From a virus (lineage: Duplodnaviria; Heunggongvirae; Uroviricota; Caudoviricetes), in IMG/VR virus record IMGVR_UViG_2663763326_000006: a stretch of 36,849 nucleotides of DNA, one strand, 5' to 3'. Under the pieces are notes generated by a model. The model made no database searches. It was not told where the DNA came from and saw only the letters and a program-made list of their open reading frames with translations. The first letter of the stretch is position 1, and each line of letters starts with the position of its first letter. Both the position numbers and the translations under genes were made by a program. Positions 3,841 through 36,849 of this stretch are shown piece after piece.

Positions 3841-3842
3841 TA

Positions 3843-9052: not shown

Positions 9053-9137
9053 TACTGACCCGGACACAAAGGACAGGTGGTTGATCTGGATGCTTTCAGA
9101 AAACATCGCCAGTGACATAGTGGAAGTTGTTTGGTTT

Positions 9138-11446: not shown

Positions 11447-11516
11447 ATCGTATTCTCCTCTGTGAATAATTCATCGTTTATCCTGCACATCCCGTATCCC
11501 CGGCTCTCTTAACGCG

Positions 11517-11526
11517 CTTTAAAATC
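11517..11526 (+). promoter_or_regulatory. CTTTAAAATC motif, candidate late-promoter element upstream of lysis operon
   Basis: One of four near-identical 10-mers 31-56 bp upstream of late operon starts; flanked by GCGC. Confidence 0.35.
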
Positions 11527-11576
11527 CTTCGCGCCCTGTATTTGTGATGCTGTCTCCACCAGATAAGGAGACACAC

Positions 11577-11927: not shown

Positions 11928-11929
11928 TC

Positions 11930-13627: not shown

Positions 13628-13938
13628 TGGTCGATATTACCCGGGTACGCCGCGAATCCCTGCGCTGGAGTCTGCTGGTTGCCCTGAACAAGACCCGCCC
13701 TTACACCGCCAGCGAGACGCTGCTGCTGGATGTGTCCCGTGCCATCTACCCGGACACCACACCGCTGGAACTGCGCCGCGAACTGGATTATCTGGCTGAC
13801 CGTAAAATGGTTGAGCTGGAGAAAAAACCTTCTGGCGACTGGTTTGCTGACCTGACCCGCCTCGGCGTAGACCTGGTGGAATACACCGTGGAATGTGGTC
13901 CGGGTATTGCCCGCCCGGAAAAGTACTGGAGTGAATAA
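13627..13938 (+). CDS. hypothetical phage protein preceding terminase genes (103 aa)
   Basis: ATGA overlap coupling with neighbours. Confidence 0.45.
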   Translation: MVDITRVRRESLRWSLLVALNKTRPYTASETLLLDVSRAIYPDTTPLELRRELDYLADRKMVELEKKPSGDWFADLTRLGVDLVEYTVECGPGIARPEKYWSE

Positions 13939-14483
13939 TGGCCAGACGCAGCACAATAGAAAAGCTGCCGGAAGACGTGCGCCGCTGGCTTGAACGGGCG
14001 CTGACTGAATCCGGCTTCAGCGGGTATAACGAGCTGGAGTCACTGTTGCGTGAGCGGGGGTACGTCATCAGCAAATCCGCTATCCATCGCTATGGACAGA
14101 AGATTGAGCGCCGCTATGGTGCTATCCGTGCGGCAACAGAAGCGGCCCGCATGCTGACCGAAGGCGCAGCAGACGATCAGGATGCGCGTTCGGAGGCTGT
14201 GATAGCCCTTATTCAGACCGAGCTGTTCGAGAGTATTGTCCAGTTGCAGGAGGCGGAAGAAGGCGAAGTCGATCCTAAAGAACGCGTGGCCCTGCTGTCG
14301 AAGGTGGCGAAGAATGTGGCTACGCTGTCCCGCGCGTCCGTCAACCTCAAAAAGTTCCAGTCTGAAGTACGGGCCAGAGCGCAGCAGGCAGCCAGCAACG
14401 CCGAGAAAATTGCCCGTAAGGGGGGACTGTCAAGCGACGCAGTACAGGCGCTTCGTCGCGAGATTCTGGGGATTGCCACATGA
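13938..14483 (+). CDS. terminase small subunit-like protein (Mu gp27 family, 181 aa)
   Basis: Immediately upstream of, and overlapping, the large terminase; N-terminal HTH-like RRSTIEKLPEDVRRWLERAL. Confidence 0.55.
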   Translation: MARRSTIEKLPEDVRRWLERALTESGFSGYNELESLLRERGYVISKSAIHRYGQKIERRYGAIRAATEAARMLTEGAADDQDARSEAVIALIQTELFESIVQLQEAEEGEVDPKERVALLSKVAKNVATLSRASVNLKKFQSEVRARAQQAASNAEKIARKGGLSSDAVQALRREILGIAT

Positions 14484-16075: not shown

Positions 16076-17571
16076 TGGCGAGGGGTATCTGGGTTTCACC
16101 CGATGAATTTGTTGCTTTTTCTGAGCCTCAGAAATCACTGACCGCGCAGATTGCCTCCCGCAGCCGCGCGATCGACTTTTACGGACTGGGCATGTATCTG
16201 CCCAATCCTGATCCCATTCTCAAGGCTCAGGGACGGGATATCCGTATCTACCGCGAACTGCGCACCGACCCGCTGGTCGGGGGCTGTATCCGCAGACGTA
16301 AAGCAGCGCTCAAATCGCTGGAGCGTGGACTGGAGCGTGGTCACGCCTCTGCCCGGGTCTTCCGTTTCATCCGCGACATGCTCGACGATCTGGATCTGTC
16401 CCGCATCATCGGTGAAATGAGCGATGCCGTGCTCTACGGGTATCAGCCCTGTGAAATCATGTGGGGCCGTTCGGTCAGGTCGTGGGCGGTGACGGATATT
16501 GTCGGCAAACCGCCTGAGTGGTTTCAGTTTGATACGGACAACTGCCTGCGCTTTCGGGCGCGTGATGCGGGTGTGGAGGGTGAGCTGCTGTCACCGTCAA
16601 AATTCGTGGTGCCGGCACAGGATGCCTCGTATGACAATCCTTACGGTTTCCCGGACCTGTCCATGTGCTTCTGGCCGGTCGCCTTCAAGAAAGGCGGGAT
16701 GAAATTCTGGCTCCGCTTTGCCGAAAAGTTTGGCTCCCCGTGGGTGATCGGTAAGCACCCGAGGGGCGCAAATGATGCAGAGATTGAAAAACTGCTGGAC
16801 TCCATGGAGCAGATGGTGGAGGACGCGGTGGCCGCCATCCCCGATGACAGCAGTATTGAGCTCAGGGCAGCGGATGGCAAGGCAGACAGCAGCGAGGTAT
16901 TTCGCGAGCTGATCACACTGTCACGCAGTGAGATCTCCATTGCATTACTCGGTCAGAATCAGACCACGGAAGCGAACAGTAACAAGGCCTCTGCACAGGC
17001 CGGGCTGGAGGTAACGGCTGATATCCGCGATGCGGATGCGGACATCATTCAGGCGGCAGTGAATCAGGTCATCAGAACGGTGGTCACCCTGAACTTCGGC
17101 GATGTGCCGTGTCCGGTCTGGGCCATGTGGGAACAGGAGGCCATTGATGACACCCGTGCCACCCGCGACGAAAAACTCACCCGGGCGGGTCTGCGTCTGA
17201 CCCCGCAGTACTTCAAGCGTGAGTACCAACTGCAGGACGGCGATATTGACGAGACACCACCGTCGGAACGCCAGAATAACATGCTGCCGCTGTCATTTGC
17301 CGAGGCGATTGATGCTGATATTCAGGCTCAGCAGCAGCTTGACGACGCGCTGGACATTCTGATGAACGGAGGCGCGTTAAATGGCACGCTGGAACCCGTC
17401 CTGGCACCTCTGTTCAGGCGGGTCGAAAACGGGGTTAACCCGTCTGAGCTGCTGGGCGAACTGGCGGAGCTCTACCCTCAGATGAACACGGACGATCTGC
17501 AGGAGCGGCTGGCCCGCATTCTCTTTGTGGCAAATATCCGGGGACGTCTGCATGAGCGTGACAACGGCTGA
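16075..17571 (+). CDS. portal protein (Mu gp29-like, 498 aa)
   Basis: Size and position between terminase and F-like head morphogenesis gene. Confidence 0.8.
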   Translation: MARGIWVSPDEFVAFSEPQKSLTAQIASRSRAIDFYGLGMYLPNPDPILKAQGRDIRIYRELRTDPLVGGCIRRRKAALKSLERGLERGHASARVFRFIRDMLDDLDLSRIIGEMSDAVLYGYQPCEIMWGRSVRSWAVTDIVGKPPEWFQFDTDNCLRFRARDAGVEGELLSPSKFVVPAQDASYDNPYGFPDLSMCFWPVAFKKGGMKFWLRFAEKFGSPWVIGKHPRGANDAEIEKLLDSMEQMVEDAVAAIPDDSSIELRAADGKADSSEVFRELITLSRSEISIALLGQNQTTEANSNKASAQAGLEVTADIRDADADIIQAAVNQVIRTVVTLNFGDVPCPVWAMWEQEAIDDTRATRDEKLTRAGLRLTPQYFKREYQLQDGDIDETPPSERQNNMLPLSFAEAIDADIQAQQQLDDALDILMNGGALNGTLEPVLAPLFRRVENGVNPSELLGELAELYPQMNTDDLQERLARILFVANIRGRLHERDNG

Positions 17572-18373
17572 ACTGGCGTACTGCATGACGCTTCCCCCGA
17601 AGCGGGCAATCAACTACCTGAAGTCCAAAGGATATCAGATTACCTGGGACTGGGAAGAAATGTGGCAGGAGGCCCATGCCCGCGCCTTTACCGTTGCTAA
17701 AGTGACCCGCCTGGATATCCTGGAAGATATTCGCGGGGCACTGCAGCAGGCTGTCGATGAAGGAAAAACCGATCGCTGGTTCCGGCAGGAGCTGGAGCCG
17801 GTGCTGAAGCGTAAGGGATGGTGGGGACCACGTGACACGACTGACCCGGTAACGGGTGAGCCGGTCACCATTCAGCAGGGCAGTCCGTGGCGGCTCGATA
17901 CCATCTTTCGCACCAATATGTCCGTACTCTACAGCGCCGGTCGTTGGGCGGAACAGATGGAAAACGTCGACGACAGGCCGTACTGGATGTATACCGGCAT
18001 CAACGACAGCCATACCCGCAGGAGCCATCTGGCGCTGCATGGTCTGGTGCTGCGCTGGGATGACCCGTTCTGGCAGGCATTTTACCCGCCGAACGGCTGG
18101 CGCTGCCGCTGTAGTGTTATTGCCCTGAGTGCGGCGGATGTACGTGCCCGTGGCCTGAAGGTTATCAGCTCCGGCTCTGCCATGGGCCAGGAACTGAAAC
18201 TGGTCTCAGAGAAAACCGGCGAAATGCGGAACGTGGCCACCTTTAATACCGGCACCACGAAGGTGACCACCGACGTCGGCTGGTCTTATGCTCCGGGGGC
18301 AGCATACCGTCCCGACCTGGCCCGCTATCAGGGTACGCTTCAGCCACTGGCACAACAGGAACTGAGAGGATAA
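17552..18373 (+). CDS. head morphogenesis protein (Mu F / gp30-like)
   Basis: Follows portal; start set to ATG 17552 overlapping portal end (alternative 17525). Confidence 0.65.
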   Translation: MSVTTAELAYCMTLPPKRAINYLKSKGYQITWDWEEMWQEAHARAFTVAKVTRLDILEDIRGALQQAVDEGKTDRWFRQELEPVLKRKGWWGPRDTTDPVTGEPVTIQQGSPWRLDTIFRTNMSVLYSAGRWAEQMENVDDRPYWMYTGINDSHTRRSHLALHGLVLRWDDPFWQAFYPPNGWRCRCSVIALSAADVRARGLKVISSGSAMGQELKLVSEKTGEMRNVATFNTGTTKVTTDVGWSYAPGAAYRPDLARYQGTLQPLAQQELRG

Positions 18374-18375
18374 CA

Positions 18376-18834
18376 ATGGCTTCCGATAACCTGGTCAGTA
18401 TCACCATTAACGATAAGTCCCTGCGCCGGAGCCTCCGTGCGCTGGATCTTGCTGCCACAGACCTGGAGCCCGCGATGCGCAAAATCGCCGGAACCCTGCT
18501 GGCGGAAACACAGTTTAACTTTCTTGATGAGGGGCGTCCGGGGTGGATGCCCTCGCTGGCAGCGGAAGAACGTGACGGGCAGACACTGCAGGATACCGGG
18601 CGTCTGATGGGGTCAGTATCAACCGACCATGACGACCGGCAGGCTGTTGTGGGGACCAACGTTGTTTACGGTGCCATTCACCAGTTCGGGGGTAAAACGG
18701 GGCGTAATGAGTCTGTTGAACTTCCGGCCCGCCCGTTCCTGCCGGTGACGGGGGATGGAGAACTACAGCCTGAAGTGGTAATCCCCATCCTCGATACCAT
18801 TGTCCGCCATCTTGAATCAGCGGCCCGTCGCTGA
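18376..18834 (+). CDS. virion morphogenesis protein (Mu G-like, 152 aa)
   Basis: Size and position after F-like gene. Confidence 0.65.
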   Translation: MASDNLVSITINDKSLRRSLRALDLAATDLEPAMRKIAGTLLAETQFNFLDEGRPGWMPSLAAEERDGQTLQDTGRLMGSVSTDHDDRQAVVGTNVVYGAIHQFGGKTGRNESVELPARPFLPVTGDGELQPEVVIPILDTIVRHLESAARR

Positions 18835-18880
18835 GTTTTCTCTCTTCAGGCGGGTGATTTATCATTGCCAGCGAATGAGG

Positions 18881-18920
18881 GGCTGTATTACCTTTATAAA
18901 GGCTTTACAGCCTCTGTTTT
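18881..18920 (+). terminator. hairpin (GGCTGTA ... TACAGCC enclosing palindrome CCTTTATAAAGG) followed by TCTGTTTTAT
   Basis: Located in the 214-bp non-coding gap after the G-like gene. Confidence 0.45.
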
Positions 18921-18983
18921 ATAACCGCCTCCGGTTCACCGCATTGCTTTCCCTGTCCTTCTCCCCTGATGTTTTCTAAAGCA

Positions 18984-18993
18984 GATTAAAATC
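18984..18993 (+). promoter_or_regulatory. GATTAAAATC motif, candidate late-promoter element upstream of protease/scaffold gene
   Basis: 56 bp upstream of ATG 19049; followed by GC-rich CGCCGGGCC like the other three copies. Confidence 0.35.
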
Positions 18994-19048
18994 GCCGGGC
19001 CTGCATTTCTCACAAACTGTCTCCGACAACATAACGCGGGACAGCAAA

Positions 19049-20164
19049 ATGTCAGCCATTCACATTTTTAAAGCCGGTACTCATACCGATATGCACGGCA
19101 AAAAACTGCCGTTCACGCCAGACGATCTTGCCGCCTGCGTGAAAGCCTATGACCCGTCCGTCCATGAAGCACCACTCGTGATTGGTCATCCCAGAACGGA
19201 AGACCCGGCGTGGGGCTGGGTGAAAGCCCTGTCGCTCAGCGGCGTCGATCTGATGGCAGAGCCTGCCCAGCTGGACCCGCAGTTTGCTGAGATGGTCACC
19301 GACGGACGATTCAAAAAAGTGTCCGCCTCTTTCTACCTCCCGGATTCACCGTCCAATCCGAAGCCCGGCGTGCTCTACCTTCGCCATGTGGGCTTTCTCG
19401 GGGCACAGCCACCTTCCGTCAAGGGGCTGAAACAGGTGTCCTTCAGTGAGCAGGAAGAAGGTGTGGTGGAGTTCGCCGACTGGCAGGCCATCACGAATGC
19501 CTCCCTGTGGGGAAAGCTGCGCGATTTTCTGATCGCCCGCTTCAGTCTGGACGAGGCAGAAAAAGTCCTGCCGGAATGGCAGCTCAACAGTCTGCGCGAA
19601 GAGGCGTACCGCGACACACTGTCGCAGGATGCAGCAGGTGCACAATTCAGTGAGACAGGCCCGGGGCCGTCTTCCGCAAGTAACGAGGAATCATCGATGA
19701 CAAAAGAAGAGATTGAAGCCCTTCAGGAGGAGAACCGCCGCCTGAAGCAGCAGGCTGCTGATCGCGATGCGCGTGATGCACAGGTCAGACAGGAGCAACT
19801 GCATAAGGACAATGTGGCCTTTGCAGAAAAACTGGTCGCAGAGGGCCGTCTGGCTCCCCGCGCCTCCTCCGTGGTGGTTGCCCTGCTGGATGCCGTCGCC
19901 GGTGGCGACAAGCCGGTGGAGTTTGCTGAGGGGGAAAGCCGCACACCGCTGGCCACCGCCTTTCGTTCATTGCTCTCCGACGGGGAGCCGGTGATGAATT
20001 TCGCCGAACAGGCCACAAAAGAGCGTGTCGGCGACACGGTGAAGGTGGATGTGGCAGAGTTTGCGGAAGCCGATCCTGAGCGTCTGGCCCTGCATCAGAA
20101 AGCAGTGGCCCTGTCCAAAAAAGAAGGCATCAGCTATGAGGCTGCTGTCGCACGCTGCCTGTAA
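19049..20164 (+). CDS. head protease/scaffold protein (Mu I-like, 371 aa)
   Basis: Position immediately before major head subunit; acidic coiled-coil C-terminal half typical of scaffold domains. Confidence 0.7.
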   Translation: MSAIHIFKAGTHTDMHGKKLPFTPDDLAACVKAYDPSVHEAPLVIGHPRTEDPAWGWVKALSLSGVDLMAEPAQLDPQFAEMVTDGRFKKVSASFYLPDSPSNPKPGVLYLRHVGFLGAQPPSVKGLKQVSFSEQEEGVVEFADWQAITNASLWGKLRDFLIARFSLDEAEKVLPEWQLNSLREEAYRDTLSQDAAGAQFSETGPGPSSASNEESSMTKEEIEALQEENRRLKQQAADRDARDAQVRQEQLHKDNVAFAEKLVAEGRLAPRASSVVVALLDAVAGGDKPVEFAEGESRTPLATAFRSLLSDGEPVMNFAEQATKERVGDTVKVDVAEFAEADPERLALHQKAVALSKKEGISYEAAVARCL

Positions 20165-21141: not shown

Positions 21142-21927
21142 ATGGGAACCACTCAGCAGGTCATTCTGATCACAACCGTAACGGCAGGGGCAGCACTGGC
21201 ACAGCAGCGTTTTGTCGGGGCAGATAATACCCCCTGTAAAGCCGGTGCCGCAGCGCTCGGGGTTGCCGAAGTGGATGCTGTTACCGGCGACAGCACGCCG
21301 GTGAGCGTTCTGGGCATTATTGCTGTCGAGGCCGGGGCCGCTGTCAGCCGTGGTGTGGCTGTTCAGTCAGATGCTCAGGCCAGAGCCGTGCCGCAGTCCG
21401 GCGACGGTAAATCCTGTGGTATTGCACTTGATGAAGCCGGGGTGAAGGCGACGTCATTCGTATCCTGCGCGGGGTGTGACATGTACTGCACCCTGGAGGA
21501 TTTGCTTGCGCAGGTGCCGGAGCGGACGCTTATCGAGCTCACCAGTGAAGAGATGGACTTCGACTCACCTGCAACAGTGAATACCCGTGTGGTGGACAGC
21601 TGTATCCGCTATGCCGACGAGCTGATTGATGCCCATCTGCGCGGACGCTATATCCTGCCACTGGCAGAGATACCGACTGTTCTGCGGGACATTGCCATCA
21701 CGCTGGTCCGTTACCGGCTCTACGCCCGCCGCCCGGAAGGTGACCTCCCGGATACGGTGAAGGATGACCACAAAGAAGCGCTGCGGCAACTCAGGGAGTT
21801 ACGTGATAACAGGCTCACGCTGGGGCTGCCGTCCACTCAGAAAGATGTGCCTGAGCCTGGCGAGTTTCGTGTACGCAGTCGCCCGGCCACTTTCGGCGGT
21901 CGTGACGGTTTACTGGAGAAATACTGA
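21142..21927 (+). CDS. two-domain head-associated protein: DUF2190-like N-terminus fused in frame to Mu gp36-like C-terminus
   Basis: Gly/Ala/Val-rich N-terminal 112 aa; internal MYCTLEDLLAQVPERTLIELT resembles the usual start of gp36 (DUF1320) proteins. Confidence 0.5.
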   Translation: MGTTQQVILITTVTAGAALAQQRFVGADNTPCKAGAAALGVAEVDAVTGDSTPVSVLGIIAVEAGAAVSRGVAVQSDAQARAVPQSGDGKSCGIALDEAGVKATSFVSCAGCDMYCTLEDLLAQVPERTLIELTSEEMDFDSPATVNTRVVDSCIRYADELIDAHLRGRYILPLAEIPTVLRDIAITLVRYRLYARRPEGDLPDTVKDDHKEALRQLRELRDNRLTLGLPSTQKDVPEPGEFRVRSRPATFGGRDGLLEKY

Positions 21928-24582: not shown

Positions 24583-24864
24583 GTGAGTGTTGAACTGACG
24601 GATAAAGGAGGACGATGTGCGGCACTGGGCATGTCAAATGGTACGTGGTTTACCCTCCTTGATATTCCGGGGGTGGAAACCCTTTTTAATACCCGTAAAA
24701 CCAATGACCCGATTGACTGCACACGTTCAAAGGCCCGCAAACTGGCGGATTTGATTGAAGCATGGGAGCCTCCCGACCACTGGTTCTCCGGCATCGGCAA
24801 ATCTGAGGGAAAGACGCTTCTCATCGCTTTCCTGCGTAACTGCAAGGGGTTTCGCACTTGCTGA
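24583..24864 (+). CDS. hypothetical protein after tail tube (93 aa, GTG start)
   Basis: ORF ends just before a terminator hairpin; no recognisable motif. Confidence 0.35.
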   Translation: MSVELTDKGGRCAALGMSNGTWFTLLDIPGVETLFNTRKTNDPIDCTRSKARKLADLIEAWEPPDHWFSGIGKSEGKTLLIAFLRNCKGFRTC

Positions 24865-24871
24865 CATCACA

Positions 24872-24895
24872 GGGGCTCCGGCCCCTTCTTCTTAA
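24872..24895 (+). terminator. rho-independent terminator GGGGC-TCCG-GCCCC followed by T-rich tract
   Basis: GC stem-loop followed by TTCTTCTT. Confidence 0.5.
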
Positions 24896-24899
24896 TCTC

Positions 24900-24909
24900 C
24901 TTTAATATC
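24900..24909 (+). promoter_or_regulatory. CTTTAATATC motif, candidate late-promoter element upstream of chaperone and tape-measure genes
   Basis: 53 bp upstream of ATG 24962, immediately after the terminator. Confidence 0.35.
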
Positions 24910-24961
24910 CGTCACGCGCTTCTCCCGACATACTGCCCTGAACTTACACAGGAGCACAATC

Positions 24962-25297
24962 ATGTCACAGACCCCATCCGATACTTTTAAATTGTCTTAT
25001 CCCTTCACCACTGCTGCAGGCACCAGAATTGAGCTGGTTGAACTGAAACGCCTGACGGTAAAAGACCTGAAGCAGGTGCGCAAAATCAGCAAAAACCCGG
25101 CAGACTGGGACGAACCGCTGATTGCCCGCAGTACTGGTCTTCTCCCGGAGGATCTCGACAATATGGATCTGGCTGATTACCTGCAGTTACAGAAACGATT
25201 TCAGCTCATCACGGGGATGGGTGAGAGCAACCAGGGCGCTGACGCAGGCGCAGGGGCTGCTGGCGAGATGGTTCCGGTTTCAGCCGGGGGAGATTGA
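24962..25297 (+). CDS. tail assembly chaperone (P2 gpE-like, 111 aa)
   Basis: Small acidic protein between tube and tape-measure genes; overlapping ORF in +1 frame encodes an acidic extension. Confidence 0.65.
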   Translation: MSQTPSDTFKLSYPFTTAAGTRIELVELKRLTVKDLKQVRKISKNPADWDEPLIARSTGLLPEDLDNMDLADYLQLQKRFQLITGMGESNQGADAGAGAAGEMVPVSAGGD

Positions 25298-25379
25298 TGC
25301 CCTCGATACTGACGATCTGGAGATGTGGCTGGAGCAGGCTGAAGAGCAAATCAAAAGCGAGTACGGCGACAAATCATAG
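25287..25379 (+). CDS. frameshift extension of the tail assembly chaperone (E-prime-like)
   Basis: +1 frame reads EIDALDTDDLEMWLEQAEEQIKSEYGDKS from a GGGGG run three codons before the chaperone stop. Confidence 0.4.
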   Translation, partial: GEIDALDTDDLEMWLEQAEEQIKSEYGDKS

Positions 25380-25454
25380 TACAGACAGCCGCCAGTAGCG
25401 GCTGTTCTGCGTTATCCCCTCACGTCTTTTCACCTTCCCCGGAGGTTAACCACT

Positions 25455-28405
25455 ATGTCGGGACAGTTTTCAGTCGGCGTTGTTATCGGCGGGATGATTG
25501 GCAGCACATTCCGTTCTGCAATGAGCGGTACCCGCCGTGCGCTTGATTCCCTGAGCGATACCTCACGCCGCCTGCAGGAACGTCAGAACGCTTTAACCCG
25601 TGCAACAGAACGTTATGGTCAACTGGGTTCTTCCCGGATGCAGCATCTCAACAGCGAGCTGCTGCGGGTAAGCCGCACCATGGAGCAAATTGAGCGCCAG
25701 CAGCGCCGTCTGTCAGCGGCATCCGCTACCAGTGATGCGCTGAAAGCTAACCGCATGGCGCTGTATGGTCAGGGGATTGAAGCGTATGGCATGGCACAGA
25801 CTGTTTATCATACGGTTTCCCCTGCCGTTCAGCAGTCCATGTCTTTTCAGGACAAAATGATTGATATGTCGATCACCGCAAAATATGACAATAAAACGCG
25901 GGATGCACTTGCCGGACAGATAAAAGGCTGGGCGCTTAAATACAATCAGTATCAGGATGAGCTGCAGGAGGCGATGGGTTCACTCATCAGCGACAATATT
26001 GATAATGTGTCAGATATCGGTTTTCTGATGCCGGATATTGCCCGCGCGGCAACGGCAACACGCACGTCTGCTCAGGACTGGGCAAAAGTGGCCGCAGTCT
26101 GGCAAAACTCCCTGAAAGGCGCGGCCAGAGATTTTGGTGCCGTTCAGAATATTATGGCTTATGCCGGTGACCAGGGGTCATTTGAAATCCCGGATCAGGT
26201 CAAGTGGATGCAGTCCCTGGCCCCAATGATGGCGGGTATTGCCAGTGGAAAAGAGGCTGTTGCTGAAATCGGGGCCAGTCTCCAGATAGCAAAAATCGGT
26301 GCAGGTTCCACCGACGAAGCAGCCAATAATTTTAAAAACTTTCTTACCAAAATTTTTGCCCGCGATACTCAGAAACAGTTTGCTGATCTGGGTATTGATT
26401 TGCAGGGATCTATTGCGAGTTATAAAGCTGCGGGGATCTCTCCGATTGAAGGGATGTTGAGTGTTATAGAACGTTACCTCAATGCCAAAAGCCCCGAAGC
26501 GCTGGCCGGCTTCAAATCAGCCATGAAAATAAAGAATGATACGGCAAGAGATGAGGCACTTCAGGCTCTGGCGAAAAACTTTGGTCTGGGCGATATGTTC
26601 GCGGATATGCAGGTCATGGCATTTATCCGCCCGATGCTGGCCAACATGGACAGATATCGAGAGATCCGTGCCGGTGCTCTCAGGGCTGCGGATAACGATT
26701 TGCTTGCCAGTGCTTATGATCAGCGGCTGAAATCTCCCCTTGAAGCCACTAAAACACTTATGGTCAGCAGTCGCGATCTGGCAATTACGCTGGGCGATCA
26801 ATTAGCTCCATCTTTTATTTCTCTGACTCAGGACTTGCTCCCACTCATTCAGGGGACAAAACACTGGGTGGCGACTCACCCGCAATTTGTCAGTGGGGCT
26901 TTTAAGCTCATCAGTGCGCTCCTTGCGATTAAGATAGCGACTGTTGGTCTCAAACTGGGGCTGAATCTCCTTATTTCCCCCTTTGTGAACGTCTGGAAAA
27001 CTGCTGTTTTACTCCGGACCAACTGGCATCGACTGACTACCGCACTCGGAGAAGGTGGCAAATTACGCTGGCTTGTCACTGGATTCAGCCGACTGACCAG
27101 CGGAGGACTGAAACTCAGCAAAGTTCTGGCGGGCAGCCTCGTTCGCGGTTTTATGAGCGCTGCACGTGCCGTTCTCTGGATTGGGCGAGCGCTGATGATG
27201 AATCCCATCGGTCTCGTTATCACCGCTGTCGCGGCAGCAGCTTACCTTATCTACCGCAACTGGGGGCAGTCAGTGGCTGGTTTAAACAGCGCTGGGCTGA
27301 CATTCAGGAAGCCTTTAACGGCGGTATCGCGGGAACTGGTAAGCTGCTGATTAACTGGTCGCCGGCAGGCCTGCTCTATAAAGCCTTTGCGGCTGCGCTG
27401 AAATATTTCGGCGTTACTCTGCCGGCAAAGTTCACCGACTTCGGTGGCCATCTTATCGACGGTTTGATTAACGGTATCAAAAACAAATGGGGGTCGCTCA
27501 AATCCAGTGTAACCGGAATGGGTGACAGCATCAGTAGCTGGTTTAAACAATGCTGGGCTGACATTCAGGAAGCCTTTAACGGCGGTATCGCGGGAACTGG
27601 TAAGCTGCTGATTAACTGGTCGCCGGCAGGTCTGCTCTATAAAGCCTTTGCAGCTGCGCTGAAATATCTTGGTGTTGATCTGCCGGCAAAGTTTACCGAC
27701 TTCGGTGGCCATCTTGTCGATGGTCTGATTAACGGTATCAAAAACAAATGGGAGTCGCTCAAATCCAGTGTAACCGGAATGGGCGACAGCATCAGTGGCT
27801 GGTTCAGCGAAAAGCTGGGCATTCATTCGCCGAGCCGCGTGTTTATGGGCTTTGGTGACAATATCGCGCAGGGGGCCGCCATTGGCCTGCAGCGGACCAC
27901 TCCGCTTGCAGCTCTGGCCGGGCAGCGAATGGCCAGTGAACTGCTCCCCAGAATGCCCGTGAGCATTCAGGGGCCAGAAATACGGGATAACACTTCAGGT
28001 GTTCGCTTCAGTATGCCGTTGCCCGATATCAATGGGTTTATGTCGTCTGCTAAAAATGCGATCGGAGCCGTAATCAATAGTTTGTCTTCCATGCCCGCTA
28101 TTCCGCTCTCCACCCGGGCATCGATTTTACCAGGGCAACGTCTGGCAAATGAGATGACACCGGATGTTCCCCGTATCCCCTCGCCTGAAATCCTGGCTGC
28201 CGGATATTCAGGCCGTGGTGCAGCTGCAACCGGCGGTGGAACGTCTGGTGGTATCCAGGTCAGCTTTAATCCTCAGTTTTTCCTCAATGGCAGGGAAACC
28301 ACAGCGCCTGCAGGACTGACTGGTGCCCTGAATATGAGTCTGCATGAGCTGGAAAAAATGCTGGAGCGTCTGCTGGCTCAGAAACAACGTAAGGAGTACC
28401 GCTGA
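25455..28405 (+). pseudogene. tail tape-measure gene split by a frame break (25455-27350 frame 0; continues in frame 2 to 28405)
   Basis: Frame 0 ends in a junk tail at 27350; frame 2 continues as a credible product from about 27267; break coincides with GGGGG at 27262-27266. Confidence 0.7.
27276..27797 (+). repeat. tandem direct duplication, 2 x 261 bp (87 codons), inside the tape-measure gene
   Basis: Two near-identical units (GCTGGTTTAAACA ... GACAGCATCAGT) differing at a handful of positions. Confidence 0.85.
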
Positions 28406-29289
28406 TGTTTGCCGTACTGGGTGATATTGAGTTTGAGCTGATTACCTACTGGGACGGCTTCGAGGCCACGTTCGGCGTCGATTATGCGGAGCATGCCCGC
28501 ATCGGGGGTAAGCCTGGTCTGCAGTTCGTCGGCGACAGGCTGGACGAAATCCAGATAACTCTGGTTTTCCATCAGCATTATTGTGTACCCGATGTGGAGC
28601 TGGCGAGACTGCGAACAGCCATGAAAGCCCATCAGGCACTGGCGCTGGTCTTCGGCAACGGTGACTATCGCGGCTGGTTCGTGATCACCGATGTGACTGC
28701 AACCAGCGAGCAGACTGACAGTACCGGCAACGTGCTGGCTGTCAGTGCCACCGTGTCTCTCCGGGAATACACCGGTGACCCGAAAAATCCTCTGCAACCA
28801 CCGGCAATACGCACGAAGCTCCCGGGTGTCGGGGCGGTCTCCGGTGCCATACCTTCACCTTCAGGGGTGGCGCAGTTCATCCGCAACGGCGTCAACTATG
28901 CGAAACAGGCGCAGTCTGTACTCCAGACCACTATCAGCGCCGTTCGGGTGACACAGAAAATGAAGGATAACCCCGTTGTCGCACTGACCCGTGTGCCGGG
29001 GCTGATGAGCGGACTGGGTAATATCTCCGGGGCTCTGGGGAAAAGTGTTCCGGCGTTTAACGCACTCTCTGAATCCATGCCCGATGCCATCAGTCTGGCC
29101 AGAACAGCCAGCGAAGCAGCCACGTATGTACAGCAGGCACAGTCTGCGCTGAGTGGTGTGGACAAAAGAAATATTGCAGGTGCTCTGGATACCGTTTCCG
29201 GGCAGCTTAACGCCGTCGGCACAGCATTCAACCGCATGTCTCCGGGATTAAGTGCAATGGCCGCCAGAATACTGACGAGGAGTGTGTGA
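28405..29289 (+). CDS. tail protein with P2 gpU-like N-terminal domain and C-terminal extension (294 aa)
   Basis: Position after tape measure in P2 gene order; start overlaps tape-measure stop. Confidence 0.45.
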   Translation: MFAVLGDIEFELITYWDGFEATFGVDYAEHARIGGKPGLQFVGDRLDEIQITLVFHQHYCVPDVELARLRTAMKAHQALALVFGNGDYRGWFVITDVTATSEQTDSTGNVLAVSATVSLREYTGDPKNPLQPPAIRTKLPGVGAVSGAIPSPSGVAQFIRNGVNYAKQAQSVLQTTISAVRVTQKMKDNPVVALTRVPGLMSGLGNISGALGKSVPAFNALSESMPDAISLARTASEAATYVQQAQSALSGVDKRNIAGALDTVSGQLNAVGTAFNRMSPGLSAMAARILTRSV

Positions 29290-29501
29290 TGTTTCTTGAA
29301 CATGTTACCCGTGACGGAGAGCGCTGGGATTCGCTGGCATGGCAGTACTACGGTGACCCGCTGGGCTATCCCCGGATTATTGCCGCCAATCCGCACGTGG
29401 CCATCACGCCGGTGCTGCCCTCCGGGCTGTTGTTACTGATCCCGGTGATTGAGGCTGAAGAAGCCCGTACAGAAGAGGATATTGCCCCATGGCTGAGATA
29501 A
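29286..29501 (+). CDS. tail protein X-like (71 aa)
   Basis: Pattern WDSLAWQYYGDPLGYPRIIAANPHVA resembles P2 gpX; precedes gpD-like gene. Confidence 0.6.
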   Translation: MMFLEHVTRDGERWDSLAWQYYGDPLGYPRIIAANPHVAITPVLPSGLLLLIPVIEAEEARTEEDIAPWLR

Positions 29502-30622
29502 ACAGCACTGCGCAAGTCACATCAGCGTTAACCGGCGTCAGCGATGTGCTGACACCGGTGTTCACTCTGTGGTATCTGCAGAAAAACATCACCTCTGATA
29601 TCGCGCCTTATGTCACCCGTGTGACCTGGAGCGATAACATCAAAAATGAGTCCGATACCATTGAGGTGGAGCTGGACGACACCGATGGCCGCTGGCTGGA
29701 TAAATGGTATCCGGGCAAGGGTGACACGCTGACGCTGAAAATGGGCTATCAGGGCGAGAAGCTGCTGTCCTGCGGTACGTTCTCTATAGACGAGATCGAA
29801 GTGAGTTCGCCCGCTTCCGTTGTTTCTATCCGTGGGGTGGCCACCTCGGTTAACAGTGCCCTGCGGACTAAAACCAGTCGTGGTTTTGAGAACACCACGC
29901 TGGCAGCTGTTGCGGGGCGGATTGCCAGAAAGCACCGGCTGAAACTGGTGGGCAGCATTGAGTCCATCAGAATCGACCGGGTGACCCAGTATGCTGAAAC
30001 CGACGTGGGTTTTCTGCGCCGGCTGGCCAGCGAGTATGGTTATGCAGTGAAAGTGGTCAGTGACCAGCTGATTTTTTCTCATCTGGCCACACTGCGCAGT
30101 CAGGAGCCGGTCAGGCAGTTAAAACCGCAGGATGTGGCCCGCTTTTCCCTGCGTGACACCATCAACCGGGTCTATAAATCTGCAAAGGTAAAACACCAGA
30201 AAAGCAGCAGTAAAAAACTGATCGTCTACGAAGCTGATGGTGGTACCCGTGAAAGCGACAAAAAGCTCAAAGGTGGTAAGGTTACCAGCGCTGACTCACT
30301 TAAAGTTAACAGCCGCGTCAGCGACCCGGACAGTGCCCGGATTAAAGCGGATTCAGCACTGGCCAGACATAACGAATACCAGCAGAACGGCTCCCTGACG
30401 CTGACGGGAACACCTCAACTGACAGCAGGCAACAAAATTGAACTGGTGAGTTTTGGGCAGTTATCCGGGCCATGGCTCATAACCACTGCCCGCCATGCGT
30501 TTGACCGTAACAGCGGCTACACCACAGAGCTGGAAGTGGCACGGGGCCAGTCACAAGAGGGAAAAAACAAAAAACTCAGAAACTCACGGTTTATCACCCG
30601 GATGGCAGTACATCGACGGTGA
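29489..30622 (+). CDS. tail protein D (P2 gpD / Mu P-like, 377 aa)
   Basis: Size and synteny between X-like and V-like genes. Confidence 0.75.
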   Translation: MAEINSTAQVTSALTGVSDVLTPVFTLWYLQKNITSDIAPYVTRVTWSDNIKNESDTIEVELDDTDGRWLDKWYPGKGDTLTLKMGYQGEKLLSCGTFSIDEIEVSSPASVVSIRGVATSVNSALRTKTSRGFENTTLAAVAGRIARKHRLKLVGSIESIRIDRVTQYAETDVGFLRRLASEYGYAVKVVSDQLIFSHLATLRSQEPVRQLKPQDVARFSLRDTINRVYKSAKVKHQKSSSKKLIVYEADGGTRESDKKLKGGKVTSADSLKVNSRVSDPDSARIKADSALARHNEYQQNGSLTLTGTPQLTAGNKIELVSFGQLSGPWLITTARHAFDRNSGYTTELEVARGQSQEGKNKKLRNSRFITRMAVHRR

Positions 30623-30638
30623 TTAAGGAGAAGAAAAA

Positions 30639-31235
30639 ATGACTGGTGTCACTCGTCAGGTCGGTACGGTCAGTGCCGTTGATGCCGACAGGGTTCAGGC
30701 CCGCGTTCGTCTGCCTGAATGCGATAACCTGCGCACAAACTGGCTTAACGTGCTGCAGCGCAATACCCAGGATAACAAAGATTACTGGCTCCCTGACGTG
30801 GGGGAGCAGGTTGAGGTGCTGCTCGATGCCAACGGCGAGGATGGTGTTATTCTGGGCGCGGTGTATTCAGACGTCGATAAACCACCGTTCAGTGACAAAA
30901 ATATCCGGGGAACCCGGTTTGCTGATGGTGCAGAGTACAGCTACAACCGGAAGACGCACACTCTGATCATCCGGGGCGGCATTGAGCATATTGTCATTGA
31001 GTGTGGTGCTGATGTGGTATTGAAAACACAGAAAGCCACGATTGACGCACCGGAAACCGAACTTACCGGAGATCTGCGTGTCAGGGGTAAGCTGATTTAC
31101 GAAGGAGGCATGGCGGGTTCTGGTGGTGAAGGTGTTACCGCGACCATCCATGGCAATATCGAGATTAAAGGGAATGTCCATGCCACGGGCAGTATGTTGT
31201 CTGATGGCGAAAACTCCAGCCACCACTCCCACTGA
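30639..31235 (+). CDS. baseplate spike/assembly protein V (198 aa)
   Basis: Size, Gly-rich C-terminus, histidine-rich end; precedes W and J. Confidence 0.75.
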   Translation: MTGVTRQVGTVSAVDADRVQARVRLPECDNLRTNWLNVLQRNTQDNKDYWLPDVGEQVEVLLDANGEDGVILGAVYSDVDKPPFSDKNIRGTRFADGAEYSYNRKTHTLIIRGGIEHIVIECGADVVLKTQKATIDAPETELTGDLRVRGKLIYEGGMAGSGGEGVTATIHGNIEIKGNVHATGSMLSDGENSSHHSH

Positions 31236-31248
31236 GCTTTTTAAACGC

Positions 31249-31258
31249 CTTTAATATC
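31249..31258 (+). promoter_or_regulatory. CTTTAATATC motif, candidate late-promoter element upstream of baseplate W
   Basis: 31 bp upstream of ATG 31289; followed by GGGGCA-ATAC-TGCCCC hairpin abutting the start codon. Confidence 0.3.
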
Positions 31259-31288
31259 AGCGTTCCCGCACGGGGGCAATACTGCCCC

Positions 31289-31635
31289 ATGAAAACAACC
31301 TCAGTATTCTGGCAACCAGCCCTGCAGGCTCCCGGCGAAATTGTCCGGGGGCTGGATGATATCCGGCAGGCGATTCAAATTATCCTGCGGACTCCCCGCG
31401 GCAGCGACCCGCATCGCCCGGAGTTCGGCAGCAATCTGCATCTTTATATCGACTGGCCTGTAGACCGGGCCATTCCGCATGTGGTGCGCGAATCCGTCGA
31501 TGCCATCCGGCGCTGGGAGCCCGCTGCCAGCTTATGTCAGTTAAACCCGCCGTCGACGGCGAACATCTTACGCTCCGGGTGAGCTGGAAAGGCTCAGACG
31601 GACAGACCCGGACTCAGGAGCTGCTATGGCGCTGA
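31289..31635 (+). pseudogene. baseplate protein W (GPW/gp25 family) with apparent single-base frame break
   Basis: Frame of ATG 31289 reads through RRWEP then junk; -1 frame continues RCQLMSVKPAVDGEHLTLRVSWKGSDGQTRTQELLWR to a stop overlapping J; break at CCC 31520-31522. Confidence 0.65.
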
Positions 31636-32729
31636 CAGAACCCGATTTTATTGAACGCGATGCCGACAAAATCACGGCAGAAATGATTGCGAAGTATGAA
31701 GCGGATACCGGCAAAACGCTGTACCCGGCACAGGCAGAACGTCTGCTGATTGATCTGTGGGCCTATCGCGAAATGCTGGTCAGGGTTGCGGTACAGGAGG
31801 CAGCAAAGCAGAATCTGGTCGCCTTTGCCCGTGAGCCGATGATTGATTACCTCGGTGAACTGGTCGGTGTATACCGTCTTGCCGCGCAGCCTGCCACCAC
31901 CACGCTCCAGTTCTCCGTAGATGAGGCACTGGCCATTGATGTGCTGATCCCGGCAGGCACCCGCGTCAGCGCTTCCGACAGCGTTATTTTTGCCACCGAT
32001 ACAGATGTGGTACTGAAGGCCGGATTGCTGCTGGTCAATGTCACGGCCACCTGTACCGAACCCGGTACCGCTGGTAACGGCTGGCAACCTGCGCAGGTCA
32101 GTCAGTTACTCGATGAGATTGATAACGTTAACCTGCTGGTGAGCAATCTGATGGCCAGTTCCGGCGGTTCAGAACAGGAAGACGATGACAGGCTCCGGGA
32201 GCGTATCAGGCTGGCCCCGGAGTCATTCACCAATGCCGGAAGCCGTGGCGCATACCGCTTTCATGCCATGCAGGCCCATCCCAACATTGTCGATGTTGCT
32301 GTGCTTTCCCCGGTTCCCGGGACCGTAGATCTGTATCCGCTGCTCAGTACCGGTCTGCCGGACGGCGGTGTTCTCACGCTGGTAGAGAGTTTCTGCTCTG
32401 ATGAGAAAGTCAGGCCACTCACTGATACAGTGCGGGCTAAAACACCAGTGAAGGTGGATTACACCATTGAAGCCAGGATTACGATCTATCGTGATCAGGA
32501 TGCCAGGTCTGTAAAAGATGCCGCTAACAGCGCCATACAGAACTGGGTGGCATCACGTGCCGCCACGCTGGGGCGCGATATTGTCCCCAGCCAGATTATC
32601 AGTGCATTGTCCGTTTCCGGGGTGTACCAGGTTGAACTGGTGACACCGGCACTGCGGGTGGTGGCAGAAAACGAATGGGCAAACTGTACGGCAATCACTC
32701 TTAACATGACTGGAGTGTCTGATGACTGA
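31626..32729 (+). CDS. baseplate protein J (367 aa)
   Basis: Size and synteny V-W-J-I-H. Confidence 0.8.
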   Translation: MALTEPDFIERDADKITAEMIAKYEADTGKTLYPAQAERLLIDLWAYREMLVRVAVQEAAKQNLVAFAREPMIDYLGELVGVYRLAAQPATTTLQFSVDEALAIDVLIPAGTRVSASDSVIFATDTDVVLKAGLLLVNVTATCTEPGTAGNGWQPAQVSQLLDEIDNVNLLVSNLMASSGGSEQEDDDRLRERIRLAPESFTNAGSRGAYRFHAMQAHPNIVDVAVLSPVPGTVDLYPLLSTGLPDGGVLTLVESFCSDEKVRPLTDTVRAKTPVKVDYTIEARITIYRDQDARSVKDAANSAIQNWVASRAATLGRDIVPSQIISALSVSGVYQVELVTPALRVVAENEWANCTAITLNMTGVSDD

Positions 32730-33300
32730 GCCATTACAACTCCCGCCACCGCTTGAGGGTGATATCAGTCTCAGGACGCTGGGAAGACTGGCAGGACGGC
32801 TGGATAACATCGACCTGAGCGTACTGATGGTCTTTCTCGTCGATATCGTCGACAGTTCCGCGCTGCCATGGCTGGGCGAGCAGTTCTCACTGTCTGGCGA
32901 TGGCTGGGAGCTGGCGGAATCGGACGATGTTCGCCGCATGCTTATAAAAGCAGCCATCGAACTGCACCGGTATAAAGGGACGCCGTGGTCAATCCGGGAA
33001 GTTATCCGCCGTTTTGGCTTTGGTGAAGTGGATCTGATTGAAGGCACAGGTCGTCTCAGTTACGACGGCAATCGCAGCTATAACGGACTGTTTGTTCATG
33101 GAGATGCAGCCGCCTGGGCAGTTTATCGCGTTATTCTGAAACAGCCCATTACTAACGATCAGGCCGCGATGCTGCGTCAGACGCTGGCTGCATTTGCACC
33201 GGCCCGCTGCCATCTGGCCAGCCTGGAGTATCAGTCTGTGGCCATTCGCTATAACAATACCGCCATCCATGATGGCAGTTATAACCACGGGAGCAGTTGA
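32722..33300 (+). CDS. tail protein I (192 aa)
   Basis: Synteny between J and tail fibre; overlapping starts. Confidence 0.65.
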   Translation: MTEPLQLPPPLEGDISLRTLGRLAGRLDNIDLSVLMVFLVDIVDSSALPWLGEQFSLSGDGWELAESDDVRRMLIKAAIELHRYKGTPWSIREVIRRFGFGEVDLIEGTGRLSYDGNRSYNGLFVHGDAAAWAVYRVILKQPITNDQAAMLRQTLAAFAPARCHLASLEYQSVAIRYNNTAIHDGSYNHGSS

Positions 33301-34550
33301 TTATGGGAAACCTGAATGAAACAGAAAAGTGGGAAGAAAATATCTATCAACTGGAGACATCAGATCCGGTTCTGGGTGGTGCAGACGGGATATCAAATCG
33401 AGCCCCCCGGCAACTGGCAAACAGGACGAAATGGCTGAAGAAGAAAACGGAGGAAGCCGCACAGTCACTGGCTGAACACGTACGTTCCCGTAACCACCCG
33501 GACGCGACACTGACAGCTAAGGGGTTCACCCAACTGAGCAGTGCCACCAACAGCACCTCTGAAACGCTGGCCGCCACACCAAAAGCGGTCAAGGCTGCAT
33601 ACGACCTGGCAGCCGGCAAGGCGCCTGCCAGCCACACTCACCCGTGGAGTCAGATAACGGGAGTGCCTGCGGCTTCACTGACGGCAAAAGGCACCGTACA
33701 ACTGAGCAGCGCCACGGACAGTCAATCAGAAACTGAGGCTGCCACGCCGAAGGCGGTCAAGGCTGCATACGACCTTGCAGCCGGCAAGGCGCCCGTCAGC
33801 CACACTCACCCGTGGAGTCAGATAACGGGAGTGCCTGCTGCCTCGCTGACGGCAAAAGGCACCGTACAATTGAGCAGTGCCATCAACAGCACGTCTGAAA
33901 TACTGGCCGCCACACCGAAAGCGGTCAAGGCTGCATACGATCTGGCAAACGGAAAACAACCGGCAGATGCCACGCTCACTGCTCTGGCAGGACTTGCCAC
34001 TGCAGCAGATCGGTTGCCTTATTTTACCGGAGCAGACCGCGCAGAGCTGGCAACCCTTACAGCTATTGGTCGCGCTATTATCGCTAAGGGCAGTATAAAA
34101 GATGTCCTCAATTACCTTGGTTTGGGGGAAGGCTCGGCGCTGCCCGTTGGTGTACCTGTTCCGTGGCCCACTGCCACACCGCCAGCAGGCTGGTTAAAGT
34201 GCGACGGGCGCGCCTTTACAAAAGAACAATATCCTGTTCTGGCCAGAGTCTACCCGACCCTCCGTCTTCCCGATTTACGCGGTGAGTTTATCCGTGGATG
34301 GGACGACGGGCGAAAAGTGGATACAGGGCGCGATCTGCTTTCACGGCAGGATGGTACAAGTTTTTCTCATTACGCAGGTAATTTTGACATTGGGTCTGGT
34401 CATTCAATCAATAACTATGACCAAATCGTTGACAACCAACCTGGATTCTCCCGTTTTTCATTTGCAGGTCCTTCGCGAGGCGATGGGGTTAATTATGTGA
34501 CCATTCGTCCCCGTAACATTGCGTTTAATTACATCGTAAGGGCGGCATAG
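33297..34550 (+). CDS. tail fibre protein with fibre repeats and C-terminal tail-collar-like domain (417 aa)
   Basis: Three tandem 56-aa repeats; C-terminal VPWPTATPPAGWLKCDGRAFTKEQYPVLARVY...LPDLRGEFIRGWDDG resembles the tail-collar domain. Confidence 0.8.
   Translation: MIMGNLNETEKWEENIYQLETSDPVLGGADGISNRAPRQLANRTKWLKKKTEEAAQSLAEHVRSRNHPDATLTAKGFTQLSSATNSTSETLAATPKAVKAAYDLAAGKAPASHTHPWSQITGVPAASLTAKGTVQLSSATDSQSETEAATPKAVKAAYDLAAGKAPVSHTHPWSQITGVPAASLTAKGTVQLSSAINSTSEILAATPKAVKAAYDLANGKQPADATLTALAGLATAADRLPYFTGADRAELATLTAIGRAIIAKGSIKDVLNYLGLGEGSALPVGVPVPWPTATPPAGWLKCDGRAFTKEQYPVLARVYPTLRLPDLRGEFIRGWDDGRKVDTGRDLLSRQDGTSFSHYAGNFDIGSGHSINNYDQIVDNQPGFSRFSFAGPSRGDGVNYVTIRPRNIAFNYIVRAA
33510..33950 (+). 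repeat. about 2.6 tandem copies of a 168-bp (56-codon) tail-fibre repeat
   Basis: Repeat units start at 33510, 33678 and 33846; encode LTAKGTVQLSSA...AATPKAVKAAYDLA. Confidence 0.85.
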
Positions 34551-34554
34551 AAAC

Positions 34555-34699
34555 GTTGGTTTAGGAGAAGGCTCGGCGCTACCCGTTGGTGTGCCTGTTC
34601 CGTGGCCCACCGCCACACCGCCAGCAGGCTGGTTAAAGTGCGACGGGCGCGCCTTTACAAAAGAACAATATCCTGTTCTGGCCAGAGTCTACCCGACCC
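34555..34699 (+). other. second tail-collar cassette fragment, direct repeat of 34115-34262, truncated by IS26
   Basis: About 145 bp roughly 95 percent identical to the start of the collar-domain region, ending at the IS26 boundary. Confidence 0.6.
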
Positions 34700-35519
34700 G
34701 GCACTGTTGCAAAGTTAGCGATGAGGCAGCCTTTTGTCTTATTCAAAGGCCTTACATTTCAAAAACTCTGCTTACCAGGCGCATTTCGCCCAGGGGATCA
34801 CCATAATAAAATGCTGAGGCCTGGCCTTTGCGTAGTGCACGCATCACCTCAATACCTTTGATGGTGGCGTAAGCCGTCTTCATGGATTTAAATCCCAGCG
34901 TGGCGCCGATTATCCGTTTCAGTTTGCCATGATCGCATTCAATCACGTTGTTCCGGTACTTAATCTGTCGGTGTTCAACGTCAGACGGGCACCGGCCTTC
35001 GCGTTTGAGCAGAGCAAGCGCGCGACCATAGGCGGGCGCTTTATCCGTGTTGATGAATCGCGGGATCTGCCACTTCTTCACGTTGTTGAGGATTTTACCC
35101 AGAAACCGGTATGCAGCTTTGCTGTTACGACGGGAGGAGAGATAAAAATCGACAGTGCGGCCCCGGCTGTCGACGGCCCGGTACAGATACGCCCAGCGGC
35201 CATTGACCTTCACGTAGGTTTCATCCATGTGCCACGGGCAAAGATCGGAAGGGTTACGCCAGTACCAGCGCAGCCGTTTTTCCATTTCAGGCGCATAACG
35301 CTGAACCCAGCGGTAAATCGTGGAGTGATCGACATTCACTCCGCGTTCAGCCAGCATCTCCTGCAGCTCACGGTAACTGATGCCGTATTTGCAGTACCAG
35401 CGTACGGCCCACAGAATGATGTCACGCTGAAAATGCCGGCCTTTGAATGGGTTCATGTGCAGCTCCATCAGCAAAAGGGGATGATAAGTTTATCACCACC
35501 GACTATTTGCAACAGTGCC
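34700..35519 (-). mobile_element. IS26 (820 bp, IS6 family), complete
   Basis: 14-bp terminal inverted repeats GGCACTGTTGCAAA at 34700-34713 and 35506-35519; flanking 8-mers CCCGACCC and GCCGCCGC differ. Confidence 0.95.
34752..35456 (-). CDS. tnpA: IS26 transposase Tnp26 (234 aa)
   Basis: Protein begins MNPFKGRHFQRDIILWAVRWYCKYGISYRELQEM, recognised as IS26 Tnp26. Confidence 0.95.
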   Translation of the reverse strand: MNPFKGRHFQRDIILWAVRWYCKYGISYRELQEMLAERGVNVDHSTIYRWVQRYAPEMEKRLRWYWRNPSDLCPWHMDETYVKVNGRWAYLYRAVDSRGRTVDFYLSSRRNSKAAYRFLGKILNNVKKWQIPRFINTDKAPAYGRALALLKREGRCPSDVEHRQIKYRNNVIECDHGKLKRIIGATLGFKSMKTAYATIKGIEVMRALRKGQASAFYYGDPLGEMRLVSRVFEM

Positions 35520-35633
35520 GGCCGCCGCCGGCATCGGCCTGGCGAACAGGAAACCCTGCACCGTGTCGCAACCCGCCTGCCGCAACCACGCAAGGCAGTC
35601 GGGTGTTTCCACACCCTCGGCTACCACCTCCAT
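35520..35633 (-). pseudogene. tnpM: Tn21-type urf2/tnpM remnant (EAL-domain C-terminal fragment), cut by IS26
   Basis: Minus strand encodes [37 protein letters not shown]; bounded by IRi on one side and IS26 on the other. Confidence 0.65.
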
Positions 35634-35658
35634 TGTCGTTTTCAGAAGACGGCTGCAC
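35634..35658. repeat. IRi, 25-bp terminal inverted repeat at the intI1 end of a class 1 integron
   Basis: Sequence TGTCGTTTTCAGAAGACGGCTGCAC. Confidence 0.85.
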
Positions 35659-35835
35659 TGAACGTCAGAAGCCGACTGCACTATAGCAGCGGAGGGGTTG
35701 GATCCATCAGGCAACGACGGGCTGCTGCCGGCCATCAGCGGACGCAGGGAGGACTTTCCGCAACCGGCCGTTCGATGCGGCACCGATGGCCTTCGCGCAG
35801 GGGTAGTGAATCCGCCAGGATTGACTTGCGCTGCC

Positions 35836-36849
35836 CTACCTCTCACTAGTGAGGGGCGGCAGCGCATCAAGCGGTGAGCGCACTCCGGCACCGCCAACTT
35901 TCAGCACATGCGTGTAAATCATCGTCGTAGAGACGTCGGAATGGCCGAGCAGATCCTGCACGGTTCGAATGTCGTAACCGCTGCGGAGCAAGGCCGTCGC
36001 GAACGAGTGGCGGAGGGTGTGCGGTGTGGCGGGCTTCGTGATGCCTGCTTGTTCTACGGCACGTTTGAAGGCGCGCTGAAAGGTCTGGTCATACATGTGA
36101 TGGCGACGCACGACACCGCTCCGTGGATCGGTCGAATGCGTGTGCTGCGCAAAAACCCAGAACCACGGCCAGGAATGCCCGGCGCGCGGATACTTCCGCT
36201 CAAGGGCGTCGGGAAGCGCAACGCCGCTGCGGCCCTCGGCCTGGTCCTTCAGCCACCATGCCCGTGCACGCGACAGCTGCTCGCGCAGGCTGGGTGCCAA
36301 GCTCTCGGGTAACATCAAGGCCCGATCCTTGGAGCCCTTGCCCTCCCGCACGATGATCGTGCCGTGATCGAAATCCAGATCCTTGACCCGCAGTTGCAAA
36401 CCCTCACTGATCCGCATGCCCGTTCCATACAGAAGCTGGGCGAACAAACGATGCTCGCCTTCCAGAAAACCGAGGATGCGAACCACTTCATCCGGGGTCA
36501 GCACCACCGGCAAGCGCCGCGACGGCCGAGGTCTTCCGATCTCCTGAAGCCAGGGCAGATCCGTGCACAGCACCTTGCCGTAGAAGAACAGCAAGGCCGC
36601 CAATGCCTGACGATGCGTGGAGACCGAAACCTTGCGCTCGTTCGCCAGCCAGGACAGAAATGCCTCGACTTCGCTGCTGCCCAAGGTTGCCGGGTGACGC
36701 ACACCGTGGAAACGGATGAAGGCACGAACCCAGTGGACATAAGCCTGTTCGGTTCGTAAACTGTAATGCAAGTAGCGTATGCGCTCACGCAACTGGTCCA
36801 GAACCTTGACCGAACGCAGCGGTGGTAACGGCGCAGTGGCGGTTTTCAT
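35836..36849 (-). CDS. intI1: class 1 integron integrase IntI1 (337 aa, complete; start codon at window end)
   Basis: Protein [40 protein letters not shown] ... [11 protein letters not shown] recognised as IntI1; R32 and H39 present. Confidence 0.97.
36734..36762 (+). promoter_or_regulatory. integron cassette promoter Pc, weak PcW variant (-35 TGGACA, 17-bp spacer, -10 TAAACT)
   Basis: Hexamers at 36734-36739 and 36757-36762 on the strand opposite intI1; no TGN directly upstream of the -10. Confidence 0.8.

Follow-up and report, generated by a model that had tools for sequence, protein, structure and literature searches.

In contractile tails related to the one considered here, the sheath initiator sits on the core bundle of the baseplate wedge, where, through beta-sheet augmentation, it serves as an anchor for the termini of the sheath's first ring (PMC10457771). 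R-pyocin PA0617, T4 gp25, P2 gpW and the Afp9/Pvc9 sheath initiators are the described proteins that W resembles; the likeness is one of sequence homology, and the structural role would be assigned to W by analogy. The nearest described copy of the gene is found in BcepMu-like prophages of the E. coli ST131 type and in Escherichia phage PhiKM (PQ738613, genus Bcepmuvirus); its product is WP_000859111.1, the annotated W ("GPW/gp25 family protein") of E. coli 4/1-1. In these elements W has the neighbors gpD, V, W, J, I and fibre, and it overlaps J by 10 nt. The other relevant precedent concerns sequence determination: PacBio-only assemblies are reported to lose single bases systematically, mostly G or C, within homopolymers of 4-6 nt, which generates false frameshifts despite high coverage (PMC8574707). 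Both the W gene and the type of artefact that most likely lies behind its break are already known.

The window, i.e. the whole stretch of 36,849 nucleotides that was analysed, contains a BcepMu-like transposable prophage, recognizable by the Mor, GemA, Gam and DDE transposase genes, by portal and head genes of Mu type and by a P2-like tail module (gpD, V, W, J, I, fibre). Of 5,426 complete E. coli genomes, about 590-640 have a near-identical prophage, many ST131 strains among them, and PhiKM is near-identical as well. W lies on the plus strand between the spike gene V (30639-31235, plus strand), which is intact in the ORF list and annotated in relatives as phage baseplate assembly protein V, and the gp6-like wedge gene J (31626-32729, plus strand), identified by its Baseplate_J domains; the placement is the one expected for the family, and the order gpD-V-W-J-I-fibre is as in annotated relatives. 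Upstream, the tape-measure gene (25455-28405) contains internal tandem repeats of about 261 nt, at about 27266-27804, and among relatives its product measures 983, 1070 or 1157 aa, in steps of 87 aa (1070 aa in contig L005); such repeat-step lengths would imply tail-length variants within this phage group. Position 8705 (ORF 8696-9052) carries the only substitution that, the fibre region excepted, distinguishes the window from the ST131 reference, a D4Y change in an HTH repressor-like protein; since this variant is common to 11 contigs, it is a subclade marker and a real SNP, not noise.

The W ORF, as written, runs from the ATG at 31289 to the TGA at 31580-31582 and encodes 97 aa. Codons 1-78 (31289-31522) are in frame and end in RRWEP; they are followed in the same frame by an unrelated tail, AASLCQLNPPSTANILRSG and then TGA (31523-31582), with no Pfam match past residue 78. 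The remainder of W, R79-R115 plus TGA (31523-31635), is found only in the -1 frame, where the DNA after the CCC at 31520-31522 encodes RCQLMSVKPAVDGEHLTLRVSWKGSDGQTRTQELLWR up to the stop TGA at 31633-31635, so that the end of W and the start of J (ATG 31626) share 10 nt. Addition of one C to the run at 31520-31522 gives a 115-aa protein, 100% identical to WP_000859111.1. This run is C3 in the window and C4 in each relative examined; indeed, in a 450-nt DNA alignment with two relatives the sole differences are two missing C's, C4 to C3 within W and C5 to C4 immediately before its ATG. The two-frame layout of W is not a chance reading-frame pattern. The first-pass annotation had called the gene baseplate W, placed its C-terminus in the -1 frame with a stop overlapping the J start, ended the first 78 residues at RRWEP and proposed that one extra C at 31520-31522 would restore a 115-aa protein; the ORF translation, the coordinates of the W stop and the J start, the identity of the repaired product to the annotated W protein, the Pfam match and the structural homologues bear out each of these points.

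The family assignment rests on both forms of the protein. The 97-aa ORF matches Pfam PF04965 (GPW_gp25) with 36.4 bits over profile positions 3-61 of 96, above the curated cut-off of 27.2, while the repaired or reference W reaches 45.9 bits over positions 3-85 of 96. The break splits P from R in the conserved RWEPR and removes the last 37 residues of W, corresponding to profile positions 62-85; unlike the sheath initiators, the window ORF as written thus keeps no W sequence from the R of E-P-R on. A full-length GPW/gp25 domain with a W-E-P-R stretch is therefore absent from the letters as they stand, which read WEPA, and appears once one C is restored. The closest solved structure is the R-pyocin sheath initiator PA0617 (PDB 6u5b; E 1e-10), with the RWEPR stretch aligned; T4 gp25 is more distant (5iw9, 5iv5; E 5e-4). 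The conservation of WEPR was judged from these PDB alignments, as no description of an "EPR motif" in gp25 was found in the papers searched. By homology and gene order, 31289-31635 is an ordinary W gene, coding a gp25-type baseplate wedge protein, the presumptive sheath initiator. A genuinely truncated W would very probably be non-functional.

The missing C in W is not an isolated event. Over 34,332 aligned columns, comparison of the window with the prophage of E. coli 4/1-1 revealed five gaps, each a 1-nt deletion in the window and each in a G/C homopolymer, with no insertions and a single substitution outside the invertible fibre region. On the plus strand, the first deletion shortens G5 to G4 (21439-21442) near the end of the DUF2190/cement gene, which thereby becomes joined in frame to the Mu gp36-like gene in one 261-aa ORF (21142-21927) that retains both Pfam domains. 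The second, G6 to G5 (27262-27266), divides the 983-aa tape measure into ORFs of 631 and 313 aa, and the third, G5 to G4 (30543-30546), lies near the 3' end of gpD, whose product becomes 377 aa (29489-30622) instead of 384 aa. The last two are those already mentioned, C5 to C4 in the V-W spacer (31285-31288), intergenic and abutting the W ATG, and C4 to C3 in W (31520-31522). Thus, the first-pass statement that W is the second structural gene with a one-base deficit at a homopolymer was correct but understated the case: there are five such deletions, four of them altering structural genes. Since one of the five is intergenic, the pattern tracks run composition and not gene content. Indeed, 4 of 36 G/C runs of at least 5 nt are shortened, compared with none of the 97 A/T runs of at least 5 nt and 1 of the 158 G/C runs of 4 nt (Fisher p about 0.005 per contrast). 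G/C runs of at least 4 nt make up 2.4% of the sequence, and the probability that five random events would all fall inside them is about 8e-9. All five deletions lie within 21.4-31.5 kb, the first 19 kb being free of errors; this clustering was considered as a local signal and discarded, as it is not significant and most of the long G/C runs sit there.

Single-base indels in one direction only, confined to homopolymers and accompanied by hardly any substitution, are what is expected of homopolymer under-calling. On this explanation the C4 run in W would have been under-called by one base during sequencing or assembly, as one of five like errors, all single-base deletions in G/C runs of 4-6 nt; the real DNA most likely reads CCCC and encodes an intact W of 115 aa with its stop overlapping the J start. 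The errors would have originated in a long-read, PacBio-like consensus. The 454, Ion Torrent and nanopore platforms could produce similar errors, usually affecting A/T runs too. Moreover, the window passes through the 820-bp IS26 without interruption, pointing to a long-read or finished assembly. Of the events in the window, 5 of 5 are of the kind published for PacBio CLR consensus errors, single-base deletions in G/C runs (PMC8574707).

The decisive result came from an assembly that shares the junction between the prophage and IS26. Exact-sequence look-up of a small ORF crossing this junction (34591-34806) returned one record, LORP02000008.1 (GCA_001471815.2), a contig of 327 kb. Aligned to positions 24595-36849 of the window over 12,259 bp, it has exactly 4 gaps and no mismatch, and the alignment spans the arrangement of the fibre cassettes, IS26 and the integrase gene intI1. 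The gaps, at 27261, 30542, 31284 and 31519, correspond to the four window deletions that the record covers, and in each case LORP02000008.1 has the full-length run, including C5 before the W ATG and CCCC in W; its products are intact, with a tape measure of 983 aa, gpD of 384 aa and W of 115 aa. LORP02000008.1 is evidently an independent determination of the clone from which the window derives, as judged by the shared junction and the absence of mismatches; the same isolate and a sister isolate are not distinguished by these data. An independent assembly of this clone would thus have full-length runs at all four places, and the combination of 0 mismatches with 4 homopolymer gaps favors the under-call. 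A Logan contig (SRR2820648) also carries the clone-specific substitution at 8705 (D4Y) and is 100% identical to window positions 1-19052. Carriers of the 261-aa fusion allele include neither LORP02 nor the SRR2820648 sample, and the fifth run, at 21439, is presumably full length in both. Taken together, these assembled sequences make homopolymer under-calling the highly probable cause of the frame break in W, with an intact gene in the real DNA. The choice between sequencing errors and real mutations, which the first-pass annotation had left open, can now be made, the evidence pointing strongly toward error on account of both the deletion pattern and the full-length runs of the same-junction assembly.

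The distribution of the short-run alleles was then considered in other sequences. Among complete E. coli genomes that carry this prophage, the CCC allele of W is absent from all 589 that gave a match (646 places), W being a single ORF in each of them; likewise, the intergenic C4 allele before the W ATG is missing from all 590 considered, and the G4 allele at about 21439 from all 596. In IMG/VR no contig has CCC in W, compared with 15 that have CCCC and a single-ORF W, and no CCC copy was found in GTDB species representatives, JGI metagenomes, the phage collection or plasmids. In addition, the aberrant products were looked up by exact protein sequence in a collection of 15 billion proteins: the 97-aa W occurs on 8 contigs, the 377-aa gpD on 3, the 261-aa cement/gp36 fusion on 8 and the 631-aa tape-measure fragment on 1, each intact counterpart being present on at least 1000 contigs. 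In these look-ups the four aberrant products were never seen together in any other assembly. Some of the assemblies that carry one of them are clean, while others are visibly noisy, with extra homopolymer deletions, such as contig L013, where 5.3 kb contain 4 deletions, G5 to G4 in three cases, and contig L018, with 5 indels in 13 kb; the look-ups alone did not separate error from real mutation. The 261-aa fusion allele is on 8 other contigs with at least three sequence backgrounds, and some of these are otherwise clean (L012, L014 and L011, the last with 0 mismatches in 20.8 kb); the G5 run at 21439 is a site of either recurrent error or recurrent real variation.

Two alternatives would attribute a function to the two-frame layout or to the run itself. 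According to the former, W would be produced by programmed -1 ribosomal frameshifting or by transcriptional slippage. The C-terminal part of W does lie in the -1 frame, and 24 nt past the break the zero frame contains a formal heptamer of the X_XXY_YYZ type, A_AAC_CCG (31543). However, the junction itself, G_GAG_CCC_G, contains no slippery sequence, and the heptamer is at chance level, with about 0.3 expected in the overlap zone, and in register only in the mutant; even its use would replace the conserved R of E-P-R and seven more residues. Folding of the downstream RNA is no better than that of shuffled sequences (z -0.13 and -0.51), an A/T run at which the polymerase could slip is absent, and relatives have a single-ORF W throughout, in the complete genomes as well as in the 15 IMG/VR contigs. 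The scan for heptamers and runs and the RNA folding were both at chance, and the two-frame layout is not conserved, apart from the lineage of contig L004 described below; programmed frameshifting was thus rejected as a candidate, and recoding in either form is extremely improbable. According to the latter, the C run would be a contingency tract, switching W, and hence tail production, on and off by phase variation. In its favor, C4 is shortened to C3 in at least two backgrounds besides the window (contigs L004-6 and L007). Useful switching at contingency tracts occurs at about 7 nt or more, and a run of 4 nt is far below this length. In addition, neither C5 nor any other length variant was seen, the putative off allele is limited to 8 contigs compared with at least 1000 intact ones and is missing from all 646 places in the complete genomes, and L007 is a noisy contig, with another deletion within 1.3 kb. 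Phase variation of W can hence be given almost no credence.

A third explanation deserves more attention, namely that the deletions are real, having arisen by slipped-strand events in G/C runs of a decaying, IS26-disrupted prophage, possibly in a mismatch-repair-deficient host, with inactivation or alteration of W, gpD, tape measure and cement gene. The IS26 element and the class 1 integron cut the invertible fibre segment, so that selection on the tail genes may be gone and neutral decay tolerated, and -1 deletions in homopolymers are a natural class of mutation. Furthermore, another lineage, represented in several datasets, has this W allele as its sole lesion. The allele is found in contigs L004 (4970-5263), L005 (10001-10294) and L006 (3569-3862), with an identical 97-aa product and as the sole indel with respect to the reference; the sequences of the three contigs agree fully over 5.9 kb, with about 0.4-0.6% substitutions relative to the window. 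Their prophage adjoins pepN/pncB, whereas the type in the window lies between aroA and ycaL, and all their other tail genes are intact; they come from several independent metagenome or SRA datasets, apparently as short-read assemblies. The frameshift in this lineage is probably genuine, and the prophage would be W-null. The CCC allele as sole lesion thus indicates that this mutation can be real elsewhere; the window has the same allele, but as one of five indels. Extending this observation, the C4 tract in the E-P-R codons might be a genuine site of recurrent mutation, where loss of the sheath initiator might repeatedly disarm Mu-like prophages or be tolerated via low-level -1 slippage at A_AAC_CCG, a proposal to which only a very slim chance is assigned.

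For the window itself, the balance of indels and substitutions is against real deletions. Mutator or neutral mutation spectra consist mostly of substitutions, whereas the window has five indels and at most one substitution, and zero substitutions over the 12.26 kb shared with LORP02000008.1. Assuming that indels are 10-20% of real mutations, 6 differences would include at least 5 indels with a probability of 5e-5 to 2e-3. If LORP02 and the window represented sister isolates, five deletions and no substitution would be required since their divergence. Moreover, each allele occurs on at most 8 contigs compared with at least 1000 intact ones, they are never together elsewhere, and the three that were tested are absent from about 590 complete genomes. 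Finally, the occurrence of five of five deletions in G/C runs only is the published long-read signature (PMC8574707). Real deletions in the window are accordingly unlikely, though less so than recoding or phase variation.

The 3' end of the window shows a different kind of event. An IS26 element (34700-35519), recognized by its terminal repeats and by the Pfam match of its transposase, interrupts the invertible tail-fibre segment within a second C-terminal fibre cassette, whose start is at about 34553; after it comes intI1, the integrase gene of a class 1 integron (35836-36849, minus strand). This prophage/IS26 junction is found in no complete RefSeq E. coli genome. In LORP02000008.1 the integron extends into DHFR, AadA and Pterin_bind-type (sul-like) genes. 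IS26 and the integron are a chromosomal resistance region lodged in the Mu-like prophage. As for the fibre segment, positions 34117-34699 are in the opposite inversion state with respect to the reference genome L003, matching it at 96.6% on the other strand, and seven substitutions are found at 34124-34319, at the crossover of the fibre segment; the invertase gene is located beyond IS26, outside the window. The organization of the fibre C-terminal region is consistent with a host-range segment invertible by a Gin/Cin-type system.

The value of these findings is mainly one of data hygiene. Read at face value, the window would lead to mis-annotation of W, gpD, tape measure and cement/gp36 as pseudogenes or fusions, and the tail module would be scored as decayed. 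Under-calling as the favored explanation corresponds to about one error per 7 kb; if this rate holds genome-wide, hundreds of false frameshifts may be present in the source assembly. The real biological disruption of this prophage is the insertion of IS26 and the class 1 integron in the fibre segment, not the frameshifts.
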